A stretch of DNA of 32,000 bases from Clostridia bacterium (GCA_017450465.1 JAFSUW010000021.1:69856-101855); one strand, 5' to 3'. Positions 3,922-29,092 are shown, numbered from the stretch's first letter. The notes: generated by a model from the sequence alone, not told the origin. Numbers and translations: made by a program.

Positions 3922-3944
3922 AGGGGCGATTAATAATCGCCCCT
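3922..3944. terminator. bidirectional GC-rich hairpin between the convergent flagellin and 96-aa genes (member of the TGTAGGGGCG repeat family)
   Basis: AGGGGCGATT-AAT-AATCGCCCCT, a 10-bp stem. Followed by T5 on the minus strand and a T-rich tail on the plus strand. Confidence 0.65.
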
Positions 3945-3963
3945 ACATTATTTTACACCATTT

Positions 3964-4258: not shown

Positions 4259-5950
4259 TCACCTATCTTTACTAGATTCCTTTATTCTAGATTTTAATTT
4301 TTCTCTTCCCTCTTTTATTCTTCTTTCTTCCTCTTGTCTTAAACGTTCAAGTTCTTCTTGCTTTTCTATTGTAACTTGAATTTTCAAGAACAAATTCTTT
4401 TGACTTGTAGTACCATATTCTAAAAAGATTCTATGTACTTTATCAAAAATTTCTCTTGTTTCTGGGAAATGTGCAAGATGCTTTATTTTAGCATTTTCAT
4501 CTCTTTGACGTAATGCCCTAAAGTATGGATTTAATATTTTCTCACGAACAACCATAAAATTCCTTGCCATTCTCTTTTCTACTGCATCGGTTGAATCTTT
4601 TCTTGGTAAAGCCCTATGTTCATCTACCCATTCATAAATTTCATCTACGCATGCCACATATTTAGGAACTACACCAAATTCTGCTGCTCTTACGATATGC
4701 TCTACCGCATCAAAATCTTTATGTTCTTCCCTAAATTTCTTTTGTTCTTCTTCTGTTTGTAATGCTCTATATGGTGCAATTAATGCATCATTTATATATA
4801 AAATTGCTGAATAACAATCACGCTCTAACTTATCTTTGCTACCTCTTTGTGGTAATACATTCGGATGGTCTTTTTTCCAACTTTCAATGAGGCGCGCTTT
4901 TTTCAAAAACCTTGAAGGTGGATTTACCTCTATAGAATAATATAAGCTTAGCAAAGTATTCATATCAGGATTTGAACGCAAAAACATCATTCTCTCGTTT
5001 TCGGATAATGATTCATATTTTGATATCAAATTTTTACTAACTAAGTTATACGATTCCTTAAGTTCCTTTGCTTTAGGAGTTTTACAATTCCTTGATGAAA
5101 GATTTTCAAGCCCCTCGCTTATCATACCTTCTTTTATAGTTTCTAACCTTTTTATATATTTAGGTATATACGCATTTTCTGTCGACATTTCTTCAGTAAG
5201 TAGCGCTGCCTTAAACATTTCTAATGGCTTTACAAGGCCTGGATTTTCTAACATATACTGCTCACGTTCTTCTGGAGTTTTTAATGACATATATGGTTCA
5301 GTAAACGCTTTTACTTTATTTCGTAAATATTCAAAGCCAATTCTACTACCATTTAAGGTAGCTTTCTTTACATCCCCTTCTGCTTTTTTTATCTCTTCTT
5401 TTATGTCTAAAAAATTTAACATATATAAATTCGAATTTCTTCTATAAATTTCATTCGATAAACTTAATGCCTCTTCTATATCAGGATGCTTTCTTAACAT
5501 TTCTTTTTTGCCTTCTAAAGTTCCTCTGTCATAAAGAAATAGCACTTCATTATTTATCTTCATAAAACTTTCATATACTTTTCTTTGCTCATCACTTTGA
5601 CTTTCTAAATCAACACCATTGTCAGCAAAATATTGTTTATATGAATTCATTTTTGTCTTTAAGTGTGTATCTACAATTTCCATGGTTTCTTCATAGATTC
5701 TTTTTACTTCACTTACTTCTGGATGCATTTTATCGTACTCTTCTTTTTGTGCATCAGAAAATCTATCATAGTTTTTAAGTGTATAATGTAAAAGTGAATG
5801 AAGACGAAGTGCTAACTTCCTTTCTTCTGGGTCTTCAGAATTTCTATATGGAAGTCTACCTAAATCACTATTTTTTACCCAATCTCTTACTTCTTCCATT
5901 TTCACAACAATACTTGGCCTACCATTTATTGTGTGAGGCATATTTGCCAT
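4259..5950 (-). CDS. hypothetical protein with six tandem ~75-80 aa helical repeats and a K/E/R-rich C-terminal tail
   Basis: 563 aa. A recurring module is visible, for example VRDWVKNSDLGRLPYRNSEDPEERKLALRL..HPEV, IESWKKDHPNVLPQRGSKDKLERDCYSAI and IYEWVDEHRALPRKDSTDAVEKRMARNF. There is an RBS upstream of the ATG. Confidence 0.7.
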   Translation of the reverse strand: MANMPHTINGRPSIVVKMEEVRDWVKNSDLGRLPYRNSEDPEERKLALRLHSLLHYTLKNYDRFSDAQKEEYDKMHPEVSEVKRIYEETMEIVDTHLKTKMNSYKQYFADNGVDLESQSDEQRKVYESFMKINNEVLFLYDRGTLEGKKEMLRKHPDIEEALSLSNEIYRRNSNLYMLNFLDIKEEIKKAEGDVKKATLNGSRIGFEYLRNKVKAFTEPYMSLKTPEEREQYMLENPGLVKPLEMFKAALLTEEMSTENAYIPKYIKRLETIKEGMISEGLENLSSRNCKTPKAKELKESYNLVSKNLISKYESLSENERMMFLRSNPDMNTLLSLYYSIEVNPPSRFLKKARLIESWKKDHPNVLPQRGSKDKLERDCYSAILYINDALIAPYRALQTEEEQKKFREEHKDFDAVEHIVRAAEFGVVPKYVACVDEIYEWVDEHRALPRKDSTDAVEKRMARNFMVVREKILNPYFRALRQRDENAKIKHLAHFPETREIFDKVHRIFLEYGTTSQKNLFLKIQVTIEKQEELERLRQEEERRIKEGREKLKSRIKESSKDR

Positions 5951-8558: not shown

Positions 8559-9797
8559 CTATTTTTTTCTACGCACTACATAGTCTTTTTCGGCAAAATT
8601 AGGTAATTTCATTAGCACTTTTTGTCCTTCTTTTCCTGGATTTATACAAGGTATATTTTCGTTTGTGTCTACATCACGAAGTGCATCTACTGTAAACTTT
8701 ATTGGTTCAAGTTTACCTGGTACCATGAGTTCCATTTCATCATTTACAGAAATCTTATTTCTTATTTCAAGAAGTGAAAAATCATTTTCACGATATTCAA
8801 TAACTTTTGCTCCATATTCATAACCAACATCACTTCTATCATCGCCGTCTTTGTAGTTTTGAATGTCGTCGTTTGCTATATTATCATAAAATAATTCACT
8901 ATAGTTTCTACTCTTTGCTTTTATTAACTCGTTTTCATATTTAGTAGGTTCAAAAGTTCCTTTTTCCGCATACTCATCTATAGCATTTCTATAGGCATTT
9001 ACTACAGTTGCTATATAATATTCAGTTTTTAATCTACCTTCAATTTTTAAGCTTTCTACTCCCATATCAACTATTTCAGGGATTCTATTTATTAAGCACA
9101 AATCTTTTGCAGATAGTAGATACGTACCACGATTATCCTCTTCTACTGGGATTAATTTGCCTTTATTTCTTTCTTCTTCAATATACACATTATAATTCCA
9201 ACGACAAGCTTGTGCACAATCACCATGGTTTGCTGCTCTACCTGTTAAGTAGTTACTTAATATGCATCTACCAGAATAGCCAACACAAACTGCACCATGG
9301 ATAAACATTTCGATTTCTAAATCTTTATCCTTATTTTCCATTATATATTTAATTTTATCTCGACTAAGTTCACGTGCAAGGATTATTCTTTTAGCACCAT
9401 TTTTTTGCCAAAAGTTTGCAGTCTCTAAGCTTACAGTATTTGCTTGTGTACTTATATGTATCGCAACATTAGGAGCATATTCTTTTAATACTTCAACTAC
9501 TCCTCCGTCACTTACTATTACAGCATCAACACCCATATCGTTTAATAATTTTGCTTGTTCTTTTATTTTTGGATAATCCTCATCAAACGCATAAATATTT
9601 AACGCCGCATACACTTTCTTATCCATTTTCTTTGCAAGATCTACAATTTTAGTTAAATCGTCATTACTCATACCAACACGAGTACGAAGTGACAAATCGG
9701 TTGTACCTGCATACACTGCGTCTGCTCCATACATAAATGCTATTTTTGCTCTATCAACCGAACCTGCTGGTGCAAGTAATTCTGGCTTTTTCTTCAT
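8559..9797 (-). CDS. peptidase U32 family protein (TrhP/YrrO-like)
   Basis: MKKKPELLAPAGSVDRAKIAFMYGADAVYAG is a typical U32 N-terminus, and cysteine-rich motifs follow (CVGYSGRC, CAQACRW). The ATG at 9797 is preferred over the TTG at 9806 on RBS spacing. Confidence 0.8.
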   Translation of the reverse strand: MKKKPELLAPAGSVDRAKIAFMYGADAVYAGTTDLSLRTRVGMSNDDLTKIVDLAKKMDKKVYAALNIYAFDEDYPKIKEQAKLLNDMGVDAVIVSDGGVVEVLKEYAPNVAIHISTQANTVSLETANFWQKNGAKRIILARELSRDKIKYIMENKDKDLEIEMFIHGAVCVGYSGRCILSNYLTGRAANHGDCAQACRWNYNVYIEEERNKGKLIPVEEDNRGTYLLSAKDLCLINRIPEIVDMGVESLKIEGRLKTEYYIATVVNAYRNAIDEYAEKGTFEPTKYENELIKAKSRNYSELFYDNIANDDIQNYKDGDDRSDVGYEYGAKVIEYRENDFSLLEIRNKISVNDEMELMVPGKLEPIKFTVDALRDVDTNENIPCINPGKEGQKVLMKLPNFAEKDYVVRRKK

Positions 9798-9816
9798 TTT
9801 TATCAATTCCTTTCAA

Positions 9817-11001
9817 TTACGATAATAATTCTTCAATTTTCTTTGCTGATTCTAAAGTATCTTCAATGCTTCCAAATGTAGAGAACCTAAAATAACCTTC
9901 TCCACATTCACCAAACCCAACTCCAGGAGTTCCTACTACTTGAATTTCATTAAGTAGATAATCAAAAAACTCCCAACTTGTCATACCCTTTGGGCACTTT
10001 ATCCAAACATATGGTGCATTTTTACCACCACAATACCAGATGCCAAGCTTGTCGAAAGTTTTAGTTAAAATCTTTGCATTTTCTTTATAAAACTTTATAT
10101 TTTCTTTAATCTGTTTTTGGCCTTCCTCAGTAAATACTGCAGCCCCACCTTTTTGAATAATGTACGAAACACCATTCGTTTTGGTTGTACGATTTCTAAC
10201 CCACATATCATGCAAACTCATATCTTCGCGTACAAGCTCTCTACTAATTATTGTATAGCCAAGACGTGTTCCGGTAAAACCAGCTGTTTTAGATAGCGAA
10301 CAAATTTCAATAGCACAAGTTTTTGCACCTTCTATTTCAAAAATACTATGTGGCAAATTATCATCTTCAATAAACGCTTCATATGCCGCATCAAAAATAA
10401 TAATTGAACCGTTTTTATTTGCAAAATCTACCCATAACTTTAATTGTTCTTTGTTATAAACCGCACCTGTTGGATTGTTTGGTGAACAAATATATATTAA
10501 ATCTGCTTTTACTGTATCGTCTGGAAGTGGCAAAAAGTTATTTTCTATACCAGAATTTAAGTGTACTATTTCTCTTCCTGCCATGATATTTGCATCAACA
10601 TATGCTGGATATGCTGGTTCAATTACAAGTGCTGTACTTGATGCATCGAATAAATCTAAAATGTCACCCAAATTATCACTTGCACCACTCGATATAAATA
10701 CTTCATCTGCACTAATTTTTACGCCTCTTTCCTCATAGTATTTTACTATTTTTTCTTGTAAAAATGGTGCTCCACATTCAGGCAAGTATCCATGAAAAGT
10801 TTCTTTTACACTTTGGTCATTAACCGCTTCGTGTAATGAATTTATTACTTCAGTACAAAGTGGAAGTGATACATCTCCAATACCTAATCTATATATTCTA
10901 CTATTTGGATGTTCAGCTAAATACGCCTTTATTTTTTGTGATATATTGTAAAAAAGATAAGAGTCTTTTAAGTTTTTATAATTCATATTTGGTTTTAACA
11001 T
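9817..11001 (-). CDS. dapL: LL-diaminopimelate aminotransferase
   Basis: 394 aa. N-terminus NYKNLKDSYLFYNISQKIKAYLAEHPNSRIYRLGIGDVSLPL is typical of DapL, and SLSKTAGFTG is the PLP-lysine region. The start overlaps the dapF stop (TAATG). Confidence 0.88.
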   Translation of the reverse strand: MLKPNMNYKNLKDSYLFYNISQKIKAYLAEHPNSRIYRLGIGDVSLPLCTEVINSLHEAVNDQSVKETFHGYLPECGAPFLQEKIVKYYEERGVKISADEVFISSGASDNLGDILDLFDASSTALVIEPAYPAYVDANIMAGREIVHLNSGIENNFLPLPDDTVKADLIYICSPNNPTGAVYNKEQLKLWVDFANKNGSIIIFDAAYEAFIEDDNLPHSIFEIEGAKTCAIEICSLSKTAGFTGTRLGYTIISRELVREDMSLHDMWVRNRTTKTNGVSYIIQKGGAAVFTEEGQKQIKENIKFYKENAKILTKTFDKLGIWYCGGKNAPYVWIKCPKGMTSWEFFDYLLNEIQVVGTPGVGFGECGEGYFRFSTFGSIEDTLESAKKIEELLS

Positions 11002-14433: not shown

Positions 14434-14460
14434 GGGCGGGTGAGGACACCCGCCCCTACA
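14434..14460 (-). repeat. TGTAGGGGCG-family hairpin
   Basis: Minus strand reads TGTAGGGGCGGGTG-TCCT-CACCCGCCC, a 9-bp GC stem between the GNAT and NUDIX genes. Confidence 0.65.
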
Positions 14461-16505: not shown

Positions 16506-18020
16506 CTATACCTTTTCTATATCTTCTTCTTCCACTGTCATTAAAGTTTCTTTATCGAGTGTATCTAAATTACTTATACGAAGTGCTTGATTTGTAATTG
16601 CCTTTTCAAACATGTTTCTTACATATCTACCATTACCAAAACGTGTGTCCACTCTTACTTCATCCAAAATAGCTTTAACTTTCTCCTTTGCACCATCTGA
16701 TAATGTATATCCATTAGAAGCAAATGTTAAATCTGCAATTTGCATTAACTCATCTAATGTATAATCTGTAAATTCTACTCTATTTGGGAATCTTGAAAGA
16801 AGCCCTGAGTTTGCATCTAAAAACTCTGTCATTTCCTTTGTGTAACCTGCTAAGATTACTACTAATCTATCTCTATTATCATCCATTAATTTTACAAGAG
16901 TATCTATTGCCTCTTTACCAAAACTATCATTTTGATTTGATAACGAATATGCTTCATCAATGAAAAGCACACCATCCAACGCTTCTTCAACTTTCTTTGT
17001 TGTCTTAATTGCAGTTTGTCCAACATATCCTGCAACAAGCCCTGCTCTATCGGTTTCAACTAGTTTATCCGTATCTATTACACCCAAACTATAAAGCATT
17101 TTGGCTACTGTTCTTGCCATCATTGTTTTACCAGTACCTGGGTTACCCATAAATATCATGTGAAGAGTTTGAGTAGTGTTATTGATAAGACCTAACTTTT
17201 CACGCTCTTTACTTACTTTAATCTTTGCAGCTAAACCACGAATATAGTTTTTTACTCCATCTAACCCTATTATCTTGTTAAAGTCTGCTTCATAGTCAAA
17301 TGTAGGGCCTTCGTCTACTTTTGCTCCCAAATCCTCTTTAGTGATTAAGGTCATCTTATCTTGTGAAATATCATCATTTACTATTCTACTACTTTGATTT
17401 CTTACTACTTCATCTAAAAAGTTTCTTACCATTCTTCCGTTTCCAGATGCCGCATTTGATCTCTTATAAAGTTCACCTATTTTTTCTTTTGCAAACTTTT
17501 CAGCATCTGGGTCTAGCATAAATCCCTTTTGTTTTACCATTACATTAAATATACTATAAAGCTCATCAGCATTATAATCTGGAAAATCAATTGATATTGG
17601 GAAACGTGATGTAAGTCCACTATTTACCTCTAAAAACTCACCCATTTCTTTTTTATATCCAGCAAGTATTACAACAATTTCACCACGATTATCTTCAATT
17701 AATTTTACAAGTGTATCAATTGCTTCTTTGCCAAAAGTATCATTACCACTAGCTAACGCATATGCTTCATCTATAAATAGCACTCCACCAAGAGCAGACT
17801 TAAATACATCTTCCGTCTTTACCGCAGTTTGCCCAACATACTCTGCAACAAGTCCACGTCTATCTGTTTCTACTAAATGGCCACTCTTTAGTACGCCCAT
17901 TTCTTTTAACATTTTGGCTACAACTCTTGCTATTGTTGTTTTACCTGTACCTGGATTACCTGTAAATATCATATTTAAGCTTTGAGTTGTATCTACTTCT
18001 TGCCCTGCTTCTCTACGCAT
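16506..18020 (-). CDS. tandem double AAA+ ATPase, CbbX/SpoVK type. The annotated start is probably not the real N-terminus.
   Basis: Two modules, each with GNPGTGKT (Walker A), VLFIDEAY (Walker B), VVILAGY and SRFP. In-frame conserved sequence (DIIGLENVKDFLRKQYNILKAQK) continues upstream to 18131 without any ATG, GTG or TTG. Confidence 0.85.
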   Translation of the reverse strand: MRREAGQEVDTTQSLNMIFTGNPGTGKTTIARVVAKMLKEMGVLKSGHLVETDRRGLVAEYVGQTAVKTEDVFKSALGGVLFIDEAYALASGNDTFGKEAIDTLVKLIEDNRGEIVVILAGYKKEMGEFLEVNSGLTSRFPISIDFPDYNADELYSIFNVMVKQKGFMLDPDAEKFAKEKIGELYKRSNAASGNGRMVRNFLDEVVRNQSSRIVNDDISQDKMTLITKEDLGAKVDEGPTFDYEADFNKIIGLDGVKNYIRGLAAKIKVSKEREKLGLINNTTQTLHMIFMGNPGTGKTMMARTVAKMLYSLGVIDTDKLVETDRAGLVAGYVGQTAIKTTKKVEEALDGVLFIDEAYSLSNQNDSFGKEAIDTLVKLMDDNRDRLVVILAGYTKEMTEFLDANSGLLSRFPNRVEFTDYTLDELMQIADLTFASNGYTLSDGAKEKVKAILDEVRVDTRFGNGRYVRNMFEKAITNQALRISNLDTLDKETLMTVEEEDIEKV

Positions 18021-18103
18021 CTTTTGTGCTTTTAAAATATTATACTGCTTCCTTAAAAAGTCTTTTACATTTTCAAGACCAATTATGTCTTTTATATTAC
18101 TTT

Positions 18104-20377
18104 CTAAATCGAATTCCTCTTTTTCTTTAATTCAAAATCCACAAGTTTTAATACTTGCAAATCACCATCATTAGCATTTACAATTCTGTTTGATTGATTT
18201 ACTATTGCTTTTTCTACTACATTTCTTACAAGTCGTCCATTACCATTATCATTTCTACCTTTAATATTCTTTGATTCAAAGTATGTAATAAGTGGCTCTA
18301 TGCAAGAATTATCAATAATATAATCATTCTTCTTAGCAATTTCATCCGCAATCAAATACATTTCCTTTGGCGTATAGTCAGCAAATTCTACAAAGTTTGG
18401 AAAACGTGATTTTAGGCCAGAATTACTCTTTAAGAAATGTTCCATTTCCGCTTTATAACCTGCCAAAATTACCACTAAATTATCTTTATTGTCTTCCATC
18501 ATTTTTACTAATGTGTCTATCGCTTCTAAACCAAAAGTATCATTCTTATCTCTTGATAGTGAATATGCTTCATCTATAAATAATACTCCACCAAGTGCTG
18601 AACTTATCTTTGCAGTTGTCTTTGCAGCAGTTTCTCCTACATGTTCTCCAACAAGGTCTCCACGCGTTACTTCAACAAGCTGACCTTTTTCAAGTACTCC
18701 AAGAGCTTTTAAGTACTCCGCTACTATTCTTGCAATAGTAGTTTTTCCTGTTCCAGGATTACCTGTAAATATCATATTCATTGAAATTGAAGAATTTTTA
18801 AAACCTGCTTCTTCTCTCATTTTCCTAGCTACTACGTTATCTTCAAGTTTTAGTACATATTCTTTTACTTCATTAAGTCCTATTATTGAATTTAACTCTG
18901 CTTTTACTTCTTCTAAAGTTTCATTCGTCTTTTTTTGTGCAAATTTACTTAGTTTTATTACATTTTTCTCATCATAAACCGCAACTTCATTCTCTACTAC
19001 AACAAGTGTTAATTGTTGTTCATTTGTTGGTTGCATTTTTAGTTTATAATCTACCAATGGCTTATGAATATTTTGCTCTATATAATACTTTATACTTCGC
19101 ATACCTATATTCTTGCTATAAAATTGTTTCAAAAAGTCGATAAGACCTTCATCATAATATAAACTTAACTCTAATTCACTACGACAGCTAACTACAAAAT
19201 AATTTGTATAATTTGCAACCATTCTTGTAATTTCTTCATCAGAAAAATCTTTTACCTCAATAACATCTCCAATTTTACTAAATACAGAATCTCCAACAAT
19301 AGCTCCAAAATCTCTTGGTTCACCCATCGAAATGAATACAAAATACTTATTGTTACATGAAATCTTTGCTCTACCATCGTTAGTATCTACATAAGTAAAG
19401 TTATTTTTTAATAAATCCACCAAAAAGGCGGTATTTTTACTAGATAATGCTTTAAAATTTTCTATAACTATTACTTCTTCTTGATCATTTAATAGATGTA
19501 TAAAATTATTTGCAAATTCTACATAGTTTTCATCTTTACTATATTGTGCACAATCAAATCTTGATACACCTGCTTTTATAACCAGCTCCTCCGTCATCAT
19601 AGACGAAATAACATTTACAAGTTCTAATAATAATTCGGATTCATTTGTAAATATTGTTATTATGTTTTTAGGTGCATTTAAGTCATTTTTTATAAGATAT
19701 GGTCTTTCAAATGCTACAACTAGATTATTTATTAAATCTTTACTAGTCATATACATATTTGAAAGTTCGCTTCTTATTTTAGCAAAAACATCTTTGTAAT
19801 TTATTTCACGAGTTACTTTTTCTTCTTTTTTGAATTCAGTTATAACGTTTGCTATTCTTTCATCTGTAAGACCGAATGTTAGTTTATACATATCTAGTAT
19901 TTTCATTTGTTCTTCATTTGGCCCACCACCAATGGTAGCCATCTTGTAGAATAGTTGGAATAAGCTATCTTCAAAAGCTTCCTGCTCTTTCATTGGCTTT
20001 GCCTTATAATACAAATCGATGCCTTCGTGTAAATTATATACTACATACTTAGTCTTTTCGTGGAAAAACTTTTTCTTTTCATCTTGATAAACTTTAGTTA
20101 TATCCAAAAATTGCGATTTAGTTAAATTAAATCTATTTATATAGTCTCCCACAAATTTATCAAACTCAGCAAAAAACTCAGGGTTCGCACGAGCTATTTG
20201 AGCAAACAATAATACGATACAATATATATCATTATCTGCTATCTCTTCTGCTCTATAAGCACGCCCTTTTCTTAATCTTAAGTTTGCTCCACATTTTGGA
20301 CAAACGCAATTAAAAATCACTTGATTTGGAAGTCCTACTATACTTGCACAACTTGGACATTCGAAAGTATTATTCAT
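18104..20377 (-). CDS. zinc-ribbon / TerB-like / degenerate-AAA / CbbX-type AAA+ multidomain ATPase
   Basis: 757 aa. N-terminal CPSC...CPKC ribbon, a helical region, then a C-terminal module IIGLNEVKEY...GNPGTGKT...LFIDEAY...VVILAGY closely similar to the modules of the downstream gene. Confidence 0.85.
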   Translation of the reverse strand: MNNTFECPSCASIVGLPNQVIFNCVCPKCGANLRLRKGRAYRAEEIADNDIYCIVLLFAQIARANPEFFAEFDKFVGDYINRFNLTKSQFLDITKVYQDEKKKFFHEKTKYVVYNLHEGIDLYYKAKPMKEQEAFEDSLFQLFYKMATIGGGPNEEQMKILDMYKLTFGLTDERIANVITEFKKEEKVTREINYKDVFAKIRSELSNMYMTSKDLINNLVVAFERPYLIKNDLNAPKNIITIFTNESELLLELVNVISSMMTEELVIKAGVSRFDCAQYSKDENYVEFANNFIHLLNDQEEVIVIENFKALSSKNTAFLVDLLKNNFTYVDTNDGRAKISCNNKYFVFISMGEPRDFGAIVGDSVFSKIGDVIEVKDFSDEEITRMVANYTNYFVVSCRSELELSLYYDEGLIDFLKQFYSKNIGMRSIKYYIEQNIHKPLVDYKLKMQPTNEQQLTLVVVENEVAVYDEKNVIKLSKFAQKKTNETLEEVKAELNSIIGLNEVKEYVLKLEDNVVARKMREEAGFKNSSISMNMIFTGNPGTGKTTIARIVAEYLKALGVLEKGQLVEVTRGDLVGEHVGETAAKTTAKISSALGGVLFIDEAYSLSRDKNDTFGLEAIDTLVKMMEDNKDNLVVILAGYKAEMEHFLKSNSGLKSRFPNFVEFADYTPKEMYLIADEIAKKNDYIIDNSCIEPLITYFESKNIKGRNDNGNGRLVRNVVEKAIVNQSNRIVNANDGDLQVLKLVDFELKKKRNSI

Positions 20378-27556: not shown

Positions 27557-27713
27557 GTAGGGGCGGGGTTCCATCCCCGCCCACCAACATTGTACACGGG
27601 CGGGTTACAAACCCGCCCCCACATTAGTTTGATCCAATTTATTATTAGTACTGTTTATACGCAAAAATGTAGGGGCGAATATCATTCGCCCGAACGCGAA
27701 CAAGGTTCGCGTA
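27557..27713. repeat. cluster of four GC-rich hairpins (three of the TGTAGGGGCG family, in both orientations) downstream of the pilin-like gene
   Basis: GGGCGGGG-TTCCAT-CCCCGCCC (27561-27582); GGGCGGGTT-ACA-AACCCGCCC (27598-27618); GGGCGAAT-ATC-ATTCGCCC (27673-27691); CGCGAAC-AAG-GTTCGCG (27695-27711). Confidence 0.75.
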
Positions 27714-27759: not shown

Positions 27760-28917
27760 CTATAGACCTATCGTATAAGGATTACCTACGTCCCCAGTTC
27801 CGCCTGTTATCTTGATTCCAGATTTTAGAGTTATTACTGGGCGCACCCCGTCCGTAGGGACGCCCGCGCCAGCGCTGCCGTCCGAACCCGCAATGAACAC
27901 GTCGTTGTAGCTGACACTACCACTCGTGCCCAAGCAGCGCACGTAGAAATGGGAGGTGCTGGAGTAGGTGTTCAGACCACGCGAAGCGAGCCATACGTAT
28001 CCACTGCTGTGCTTTAGGTTTGCATTACCACTTATCACGCTTTGGTCGGTGGTGTAGTATGTGTCGCTATATGGTAACACTGCACTTCGTGCTGCATCGA
28101 ATGTTAGTGGATTTGCCGTTGTATCTATTTGCGCTATGCTACTACTCGTTGCTCCTACACTTCTTCCACTTGTTGCATATGTACTATTTACATATGTTGC
28201 ACATTTATCGTTTAGTATTTGTACACAATTTGCATAGTCGCTTTTTGCTTTTTCGGTATCATGAAGACTACTACCACCTAATGTTAAGTTGCCTACACTT
28301 TCTTTACTTATTATTTCTATTACTCCTCCACTGTTTCTTAATACTACCCATTTACCACTATAATCTCCTCCTGTATATGCTATGTAATCTCCTACTTGTA
28401 CATCACTATTGGCCATTATGGCTGTACTGCTTCCGCCACCACTACCACCTTCTGCTAGTACCCAGTCAGTTCCTTCTGCTCCTTCGCAGTATGCCCAGCC
28501 AGCTTCTCCATAGCCATATGTTATATTTACAGGACTGCTTGGTGTTGCTAAATTGCAACTTGTACTATCTCCTATTCCTACTGCTATTTTTTGATTATAT
28601 CCTTCTCCTACTGCACATACATAGTACGCTCCATTTCCACCTTCGTATGATTTAGCTGTATAACCGCTACTTATGTATAATGGTGTTACTCCACTTATTT
28701 CGTAGTATTTTGTTGGTGTTGTTGGTAACTGCCCTTCTCCTATATCTGTTTCCCATATACGTACCGCTTTTCCTATTTGTTCTGCTGTACGTTTATCAGC
28801 ACTTACTTGTGCACGCTGCCTTATTCCTGCTAGGTTTGGTACTGCTATTAATGCAATTATACCGAGTATTGCTATTACGATTATTAGTTCTATTAGCGTA
28901 AAGCCTTTTTGTTTCAT
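27760..28917 (-). CDS. type IV pilin-like protein with a large C-terminal globular domain
   Basis: The N-terminus MKQKGFTLIELIIVIAILGIIALIAVPNL carries the prepilin peptidase site G/FTLIE and a hydrophobic alpha1 helix. RBS AAAGGAGG. The C-terminal part has a W-VL...WLASR...GVRPVITL pattern. Confidence 0.85.
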   Translation of the reverse strand: MKQKGFTLIELIIVIAILGIIALIAVPNLAGIRQRAQVSADKRTAEQIGKAVRIWETDIGEGQLPTTPTKYYEISGVTPLYISSGYTAKSYEGGNGAYYVCAVGEGYNQKIAVGIGDSTSCNLATPSSPVNITYGYGEAGWAYCEGAEGTDWVLAEGGSGGGSSTAIMANSDVQVGDYIAYTGGDYSGKWVVLRNSGGVIEIISKESVGNLTLGGSSLHDTEKAKSDYANCVQILNDKCATYVNSTYATSGRSVGATSSSIAQIDTTANPLTFDAARSAVLPYSDTYYTTDQSVISGNANLKHSSGYVWLASRGLNTYSSTSHFYVRCLGTSGSVSYNDVFIAGSDGSAGAGVPTDGVRPVITLKSGIKITGGTGDVGNPYTIGL

Positions 28918-28948
28918 ATTGTGTTCCTCCTTTATGTTTTGAATTTAA

Positions 28949-29063
28949 AACACCTCATCTGTCACTACGTGACATCTTCCCCTCAAGGGGAAGACTTTAA
29001 ATTTTCACTAGCCGTATGCCTTCCCCTCGAGGGGAAGGTGGCCGTAAGGCCGGATGAGGTGTT
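28949..29063. repeat. 115-bp composite palindromic element in the 5' leader of the pilin-like gene
   Basis: Outer arms AACACCTCATC / GATGAGGTGTT enclose four hairpins: GTCAC-TAC-GTGAC, CTTCCCCT-CA-AGGGGAAG, CCTTCCCCT-CG-AGGGGAAGG and GGCC-GTAA-GGCC. Confidence 0.7.
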
Positions 29064-29092
29064 ACAATTTCTCATACAAAAATTTTAAAATA

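Follow-up and report, generated by a model that had tools for sequence, protein, structure and literature searches.

An adenine-depleted segment in a clostridial pilin-like gene: a probable remote target of a diversity-generating retroelement

How does a gene of an adenine-rich genome come to hold a short segment in which almost no codon ends in A? The question is raised by a 32,000-nucleotide stretch of DNA from Clostridia bacterium (GCA_017450465.1, JAFSUW010000021.1:69856-101855), called the window here and numbered from its first letter, whose minus strand encodes a pilin-like protein with such a segment near the 3′ end of the gene. A preliminary description of the window took the segment for a variable region (VR) of a diversity-generating retroelement (DGR), that is, a region overwritten by cDNA from a template repeat (TR) lying elsewhere. 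We find it probable that 27841-27993 is a DGR VR, that the protein is a lectin-like adhesin with a pilin anchor, and that the cassette serving it is remote and rarely active. The features on which the argument turns are these.

27760-28917, minus: pilin-like gene, 385 aa and stop, with prepilin N-terminus, pilin-like head, Gly/Ser linker and C-terminal variable domain (open reading frame (ORF), Pfam N_methyl match and AlphaFold model)
27841-27993, minus: strictly adenine-free core, W309-R359, 153 nt, the predicted VR (third positions A0 C27 G13 T11; scaffold codons common to the orthologues L009, L010 and L021)
27817-27849, minus: putative 3′ end of TR homology, resembling an initiation of mutagenic homing (IMH) site, GGGGTGCGCCC then AGTAATAACTCTAAAATCTGG (nucleotides near-invariant among A-depleted orthologues)
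28009-28072, minus: 5′ "fade" zone, NNC-rich but with adenines (A-ending codons 5/21; no equivalent bias in L009 or L010)

Composition and variation of the adenine-poor segment

Read on the minus strand, the 57 codons of 27838-28008 end in C 29 times, in G 13 times, in T 12 times and in A three times. Eleven of the 25 codons that follow end in A, as do 12 of the 20 at 28081-28140, so that all codon counts of the preliminary description were reproduced. Across the rest of the gene A takes 177 of 328 third positions (54-57%; Fisher p = 2e-13 against the segment). Total adenine drops from ~0.42 outside the segment to 0.17 inside it and G+C climbs to ~0.6, while T stays flat at ~0.21; since T is constant, the shift amounts to G or C in place of A, and the earlier claim that the bias is directed at A specifically holds. 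For a background, a frame of 57 codons was slid over the 27 other genes of the window, giving ~7,600 positions with a minimum third-position A of 0.19 and a maximum GC of 0.46, against 0.035-0.05 and 0.61-0.63 for the segment. The segment is an extreme local anomaly, and chance is excluded as its cause.

The two ends of the segment differ in character. At GGGGTGCGCCC the 3′ edge is sharp and conserved in alignments of the A-depleted orthologues, and the GC-rich stretch of about 35 nt noticed there earlier was confirmed as 27839-27873, with 83% GC. The 5′ boundary had been described as diffuse and reaching to 28072, and here the preliminary description has to be amended: the fade zone probably lies outside the VR, to judge from its A-ending codons, the missing bias in orthologues and the TRs of a sister subfamily (below), which start around the W/L of a WLASR motif. 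The VR would most likely start near 27993-27999 rather than at 28072. On the coding strand, adenine is avoided at scaffold codons and at third positions, and the variable codons are of the NNC/NNT kind, which is the composition looked for in a DGR VR.

Orthologues from other lineages (L009, L010 and L021) encode proteins ~50-60% identical to the pilin-like protein, and their segments have a third-position A of ~0.04. Common to all three and to the window gene is a set of non-preferred scaffold codons, TGG CTC GCT TCG CGT NNT CTG ... GGG GTG CGC CCA GTA. In a distant homologue, L012, the corresponding segment is without adenine depletion.

How the orthologues vary is more telling than their composition at any one locus. 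Inside the segment, pairwise differences at codon positions 1, 2 and 3 come to 0.31, 0.27 and 0.24; the flanks show the normal pattern, with 0.06-0.19 at positions 1-2 and 0.33-0.35 at position 3. The preliminary description had asked for variation at the first two codon positions, and between lineages this is what is seen. When the window gene, L009 and L010 were compared, none of the 40 third-position differences within the segment involved A, while 263 of 382 did so in the flanks (p = 3e-19). Among variable columns, A occurs in 40 of 49 at codon positions 1-2 and in two of 21 at position 3. The absence of A from the 40 differences, together with the pattern at positions 1 and 2, implies that adenine has been kept off synonymous sites independently in each lineage after divergence. 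Between lineages, variation is thus concentrated at codon positions 1-2, in columns that contain A, and not at synonymous sites. Such a pattern is expected if an A-mutagenic retroelement does the templating; it is expected neither from a single horizontal acquisition nor from diversifying selection on its own.

In some relatives the C-terminal domain is present in full two or three times in tandem within one protein (L007 260-1885 and L008 327-3733), and third-position A is only mildly lowered (0.2-0.38) in each WLA(S/A)R...GVRPV stretch. A homologue search with the C-terminal domain alone returned fewer matches than the first search.

Template repeats and remote targets in a sister subfamily

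DGR components were found next to relatives of the pilin-like gene. A profile search with VR segments and with Asn-substituted versions of them recovered short ORFs that are translations of TRs (the P0094 cluster, MNANSSNSNFNVRNVNTSGSLNNNNLCNVNSDGNTNGNSNSNGLRLVAP..., and P0103, ...VVWLASPCVNCNSNNANFNVRYMNSGKINNNNLFNSNGNTNNNSNGVRAV...). On the contig L048 the order is target gene (VR at 903-1074), MutS_I-domain protein, bAvd-like protein and TR (2051-2222), and the contig stops at the position where a reverse transcriptase (RT) would be expected.

L048 1240-1701: MutS domain I protein, 153 aa (E = 9e-9; overlaps the bAvd-like gene)
L048 1673-2017: bAvd-like gene (31 bits, below the Pfam cut-off)

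A second TR of the subfamily lies on L050. The VR of a third locus, L051, and the TR of L048 differ at 26 of 156 positions, and 24 of the 26 are adenines in the TR. The L051 target sits on a 4.5-kb contig without a cassette. Mismatches of this kind are the classical mark of a DGR, and the target that bears them is a remote one.

The window gene is tied to these loci in three ways. Residues 157-383 of its protein, which span all of the C-terminal domain, match the L048 target in BLASTP (E = 6e-23, 32% identity over 245 aa), so that the variable domain is homologous to that of a demonstrably diversified protein. The TRs of L048 and L050 have third positions of A2 C21-25 G8-9 T12-20 in loci of 30-35% GC, which is the make-up of the window segment. 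Homology between TR and VR in the sister subfamily starts around the W/L of WLASR and stops at the codons for G-[LV]-R-[PL]-V, an end that corresponds to the sharp 3′ edge of the window segment at ~27838-27849.

The L048 TR was tried as the template of the window VR and ruled out, with 37 non-A mismatches, a result that belongs with the adverse findings collected below. In the cassette of the sister subfamily (L048 1240-1701 and 1673-2017; L050 1-132) the MutS domain I and bAvd-like genes lie upstream of the TR, and both TRs found share the 5′ flank TTAGGGCATTG(N)TTGTA. Two short proteins from ENA contigs of ~600 nt mix the features of template and target: in P0086 (71 aa) an Asn-rich, TR-like first half is joined to a VR-like second half, and in P0093 (105 aa) a VR that is rich in Asn and apparently unmutated precedes a normal C-terminal tail. 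They are either TR-VR assembly chimeras or VRs that were partially or newly homed.

The missing template and the competing explanations

Several results weigh against a VR in the window gene, and they are of three kinds. The first concerns the cognate TR and RT. As had been stated earlier, the window holds neither: a repeat search of the 32 kb gave no second copy of the segment, and among the genes of the window and of ~7 kb beyond it there was none for an RT, an Avd or a MutS_I-like protein. Neighbourhoods of the homologues P0003, P0004, P0010, P0005, P0007, P0011, P0006 and P0072 contained no RT, and BLAST of five VRs against all fetched loci returned homologous VRs only and no TR. When 185,579 representative genomes were searched with an adenine-tolerant pattern of the window VR (C read as M, G as R and T as W), which works locally, nothing matched, the VR itself included, so that the source genome is absent from that collection. 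The family scaffold pattern, TGGCTCGCTTCGCGTNNTCTG, gave six short chance matches in unrelated GC-rich metagenome-assembled genomes among the representative genomes, two VRs (the positive control included) and no TR in JGI metagenomes, and nothing in IMG/VR or GenBank phages. On viral contigs, patterns for the mid-scaffold, the 3′ end and the TR flank, and the exact strings of the L048 and L050 TRs (TR48 and TR50), gave chance matches or none. Neither blastn and tblastn against GenBank phages nor a related-locus search in viral contigs found relatives.

The second kind concerns close strains. Six ENA metagenome contigs, drawn from four or more samples, encode exactly this pilin-like protein, whose 90% cluster is a single sequence; the strain is present in ERZ28653997, ERZ28018714, ERZ28018705 and ERZ28654060, with a longest contig of 190 kb. 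Among five near-clonal contigs (at least four samples) the segment is identical, so that hypervariability between closely related strains is not observed; this is weak evidence against diversification because overall the contigs match the window at 99.95% identity or more. In a second lineage the contigs L009 and L047, otherwise near-identical, again have identical segments. The preliminary description had named identical sequence in related strains as an outcome that would speak against a VR, and in part this is what we find: the segment is the same in the near-clonal contigs and in L009 and L047, while in the latter pair the sequence upstream differs. The predicted variation at the first two codon positions exists between lineages and is missing among the near-clonal contigs.

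The difference between L009 (~780-1085) and L047 is a mosaic patch of ~300 nt, including a 21-nt indel, within the C-terminal domain and just upstream of the segment. It stops exactly at the start of the adenine-free segment and is itself of normal, A-rich composition. The patch points to homologous recombination among members of the family, with crossover at the conserved VR scaffold.

A paralogue (P0002, on L005 10001-11104) occurs at another locus in the same samples and encodes a 69% identical protein. Its segment is T-richer (third positions A 0.09, T 0.40) and includes A-ending codons such as TCA, GAA and ACA; it looks partly decayed or ameliorated. A single TR for both paralogues was ruled out, given many differences at non-A positions, some codons differing throughout, and the want of a common template for the two segments is a further adverse point.

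The third kind concerns the family and fold of the C-terminal domain. The Pfam model of DUF6273 (PF19789), a domain known from other DGR targets, had no match at E <= 1 in 20 family members. Foldseek against PDB, with the confident model of the domain (pLDDT ~90+), found nothing below E = 0.4, and phmmer against PDB gave no relevant match. Other comparisons lean towards DUF6273: hhalign to the DUF6273 domain of P0028, a prepilin-DUF6273 protein, reached 93.5% in global mode, and a BFVD structure search placed DUF6273 phage proteins among the top matches, at non-significant E values of 0.1-0.25.

In sum, the proposal of a remote-target VR is strengthened by the TR-like composition, the homology to the L048 target, the remote targets of the sister subfamily and the exclusion of adenine in several lineages, and it falls short in that the cognate TR and RT were not found in the collections searched. 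If it is correct, the mechanism would be as follows. A TR elsewhere would be transcribed and then reverse-transcribed by an RT that is error-prone at adenines, and the cDNA would overwrite the ~150 nt that separate the WLASR motif from GVRPV. Selection would confine TR adenines to the first two positions of AAC/AAT-type codons, which would leave the scaffold codons and all third positions free of A. The VR would inherit this make-up, conspicuous in an A-rich genome, and its sharp 3′ edge at GGGGTGCGCCC would be the end of TR homology, the IMH. As the cassette would lie outside the window, the window VR would be a remote target. We infer that the window VR has a TR and RT of its own, in the genome or on a visiting mobile element, and that retrohoming there is rare or tightly regulated, not ongoing; current DGR activity at the VR is unproven.

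Among the alternatives the one that survives best is an orphan or fossil VR, written by a DGR in the past, whose cassette has since been lost or resides on an absent mobile element, leaving the composition as a relic and the protein static. We think this rather unlikely, and such a fossil would have to be recent: under the mutational bias of the genome, codons ending in A would by now be expected in a long-dead relic, and the paralogue has them, whereas W309-R359 has no third-position A (54-57% in the rest of the gene) and the 40 pairwise third-position differences among three lineages include none with A. A fossil would nevertheless agree with the failure to find a TR or RT in any collection searched, with the identity of the segment in all contigs of the strain and in L009 and L047, and with the partly ameliorated look of the paralogue on L005 and the undepleted homologue L012. 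DGRs can, moreover, travel on transferable integrative and conjugative elements (ICEs) (bioRxiv 10.1101/2024.11.15.621889).

Two explanations do without a retroelement, and both are very improbable. Recombination with a GC-rich donor, or a horizontal patch, including cassette exchange by gene conversion in the manner of pilins, would fit a GC-rich segment in a ~30% GC genome and a family in which recombination occurs, with the L009/L047 mosaic ending at the segment start. That mosaic, however, is external to the segment and A-rich in the normal way. The depletion affects A alone, T being unchanged, and four or more lineages have it with identical boundaries and scaffold codons. Variation falls on codon positions 1-2 of NNC/NNT codons, and neither a silent copy nor a GC-rich homologue came to light, the six scaffold-pattern matches in genomes being short chance matches. 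Diversifying selection on exposed loops combined with a local nucleic-acid constraint (RNA or DNA structure, or an overlapping element), with no templated mutagenesis, would suit a region that encodes surface beta-hairpins of a probable binding domain in the model and in which nonsynonymous change dominates, but selection on protein loops leaves A at synonymous third positions untouched, genuine TRs of the sister subfamily have the same composition, and there is no Rfam match.

The protein, its locus and comparison with known systems

Beyond the segment, the following features of the gene and its surroundings bear on what the protein may be.

28843-28917, minus: class III (prepilin) signal and N-methylation motif, aa 1-25, MKQKG and, after the cleavage site, FTLIELIIVIAILGIIALIAV (Pfam PF07963 N_methyl, E = 3.8e-9)
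27763-28422, minus: C-terminal globular domain, aa ~166-385 (220 aa), remotely DUF6273-like (BLASTP to the L048 target; no Pfam match)
28941-29071, minus: leader 5′ of the pilin-like gene, GC-rich and highly structured (minimum free energy -72.1 kcal/mol, z = -8.8)
27557-27712, minus: cluster of four GC-rich hairpins in the spacer 3′ of the stop codon (27694-27712, 27669-27691, 27597-27620, 27557-27582)

The PF07963 match to residues 1-25 scores 36.2 bits against a cut-off of 21.2, and the N-terminus has the signal of a type IV pilin or pseudopilin: cleavage between G and F, E at +5 and a hydrophobic alpha-1 helix. An AlphaFold model built from 20 family sequences has a long alpha-1 helix (8-59), a small sheet (strands 97-116), a disordered Gly/Ser linker (126-166) and a C-terminal domain (residues ~170-385) that is folded confidently, with a predicted local distance difference test (pLDDT) of ~90+; the A-poor segment forms beta-hairpins in it. 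The best explanation of the protein is a type IV (pseudo)pilin N-terminus joined by a flexible linker to a ligand-binding domain akin to the DUF6273/C-lectin-like DGR targets.

The window otherwise has the ordinary gene content of a low-GC spore-former's chromosome (ffh, flagellin, dapA/B/F, proS, SpoIIIAA, a SleB-like hydrolase and others), and the neighbours of the pilin-like gene are BirA-like, SpoIIIAA, SleB-like hydrolase, DUF3592, DacB and DapA/B. Pilus assembly genes (prepilin peptidase, PilB/PilC-type ATPase, platform) are found neither in the window nor at the paralogue locus. Two ORFs beside the flagellin gene (563 aa at 4259-5950 and 148 aa at 2248-2694, both minus) have no Pfam match, and at 16506-20377 (minus) three direct repeats of ~800 nt, diverged to 61-73% identity, occur in two adjoining large AAA+ (SpoVK-like) genes and are tandem AAA modules.

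The 5′ leader forms a very stable, multi-branch fold in which GC-rich palindromes are nested. With the paralogue's leader (L005 ~9780-9990) it shares ~97% identity, while the coding regions are far less conserved (69% at the amino acid level); it is not conserved in other species and matches no Rfam family. The shared leader may be a common regulatory RNA or DNA element. An Rfam scan of the region gave spurious microRNA matches only.

Downstream, the first hairpin begins ~125 nt past the end of the VR. GC-rich hairpins 3′ of the stop codon occur in all family members with A depletion and in both proven targets and are absent in the non-depleted homologue L012. Within the window the motif GGGCG-loop-CGCCCCTAC recurs past gene ends in gene orientation (3924-3946 and 14434-14459, plus; 27557-27582 and 27669-27691, minus), and looks like a terminator- or REP-like (repetitive extragenic palindromic) family. 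Because the motif is present elsewhere in the window, a role of the downstream hairpins in DGR targeting is a mere possibility.

Taken as a whole, the locus admits a wider scenario, which we put forward tentatively and would not yet back over its alternatives: a type IV pilus or pseudopilus subunit of Gram-positive bacteria (rumen Clostridia), whose lectin-like tip domain is reprogrammed in trans by a distant or mobile DGR, with two paralogous targets under near-identical leaders, one fresh and one decaying. Its action would be episodic, the VR being fixed in clones and rewritten only when the cassette is present or induced.

The classical variable proteins of the C-lectin fold are Mtd of Bordetella phage BPP-1 and TvpA of Treponema denticola. 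Both have AAC-type codons, a C-terminal VR and a sharp GC-rich 3′ boundary, and Treponema also has remote targets. No sequence or Foldseek similarity was detected between Mtd or TvpA and the window protein.

The closest comparison is the sister subfamily (L048, L051 and L050), which has the same WLASR ... G[VL]RP[VL] frame, the same VR length and a VR ~25 codons before the stop. It shares with the window gene the homologous C-terminal domain, the third-position make-up, the GC-rich hairpins after the stop and remote targets without a local cassette. It differs in its scaffold nucleotides and in the N-terminal part, which consists of repeats like those of immunoglobulin (Ig) and fibronectin type III (Fn3) where the window protein has a prepilin N-terminus; in the sister subfamily bAvd and TR are seen, whereas TR, Avd and RT were not observed for the window gene.

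DUF6273 is a C-lectin-like DGR target domain with the VR at its C-terminus (PMC10743442, PMC11792537). In the DUF6273 targets of gut phages and Firmicutes (tentaclins, targets of Faecalibacterium prophages) the VR has the same place at the C-terminal end of the domain, in beta-hairpins, and the motif W.L(S/A).R ... GVRP is common to them and the window protein; proteins that combine a prepilin with DUF6273 exist as well (P0028, P0029). Unlike these targets, the window family lacks a Pfam HMM (hidden Markov model) match, is non-significant in Foldseek and is absent from the phage and viral collections searched. If a cognate cassette exists, an unannotated domain family that the Pfam DUF6273 model misses would join the DGR targets. 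The case also bears on method: a remote DGR target is recognizable from composition alone, and where the TR cannot be reached, the cross-lineage exclusion of adenine at synonymous sites can serve as a test.

The arrangement of a type IV pilin with a hypervariable tip domain had been called uncharacterised, which goes somewhat too far, given the DUF6273/C-lectin-like targets, the rare 'G-type pilin' domains with a VR listed in a survey (PMC11661182) and the tip adhesins of Bacteroides Type V pili, which are DGR targets (bioRxiv 10.1101/2024.11.15.621889). The mechanism and the class of domain are already known; the fusion to a type IV pilin in Clostridia is barely documented. Many DGRs have low activity under tight regulation and are carried on transferable ICEs (bioRxiv 10.1101/2024.11.15.621889). 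The Bacteroides system follows the logic proposed here, a hypervariable lectin-like adhesin on a pilus, with low, regulated activity and mobile DGRs, and differs in its phylum, in using Type V lipoprotein pilins in place of a type IV prepilin N-terminus, and in a cassette that adjoins its target. Should the cognate cassette of the window VR exist, the locus would be a clear instance of DGR diversification of an adhesin displayed on a type IV pilin in Firmicutes, and the idea of a hypervariable pilus tip would reach past the Type V pili of Bacteroides.

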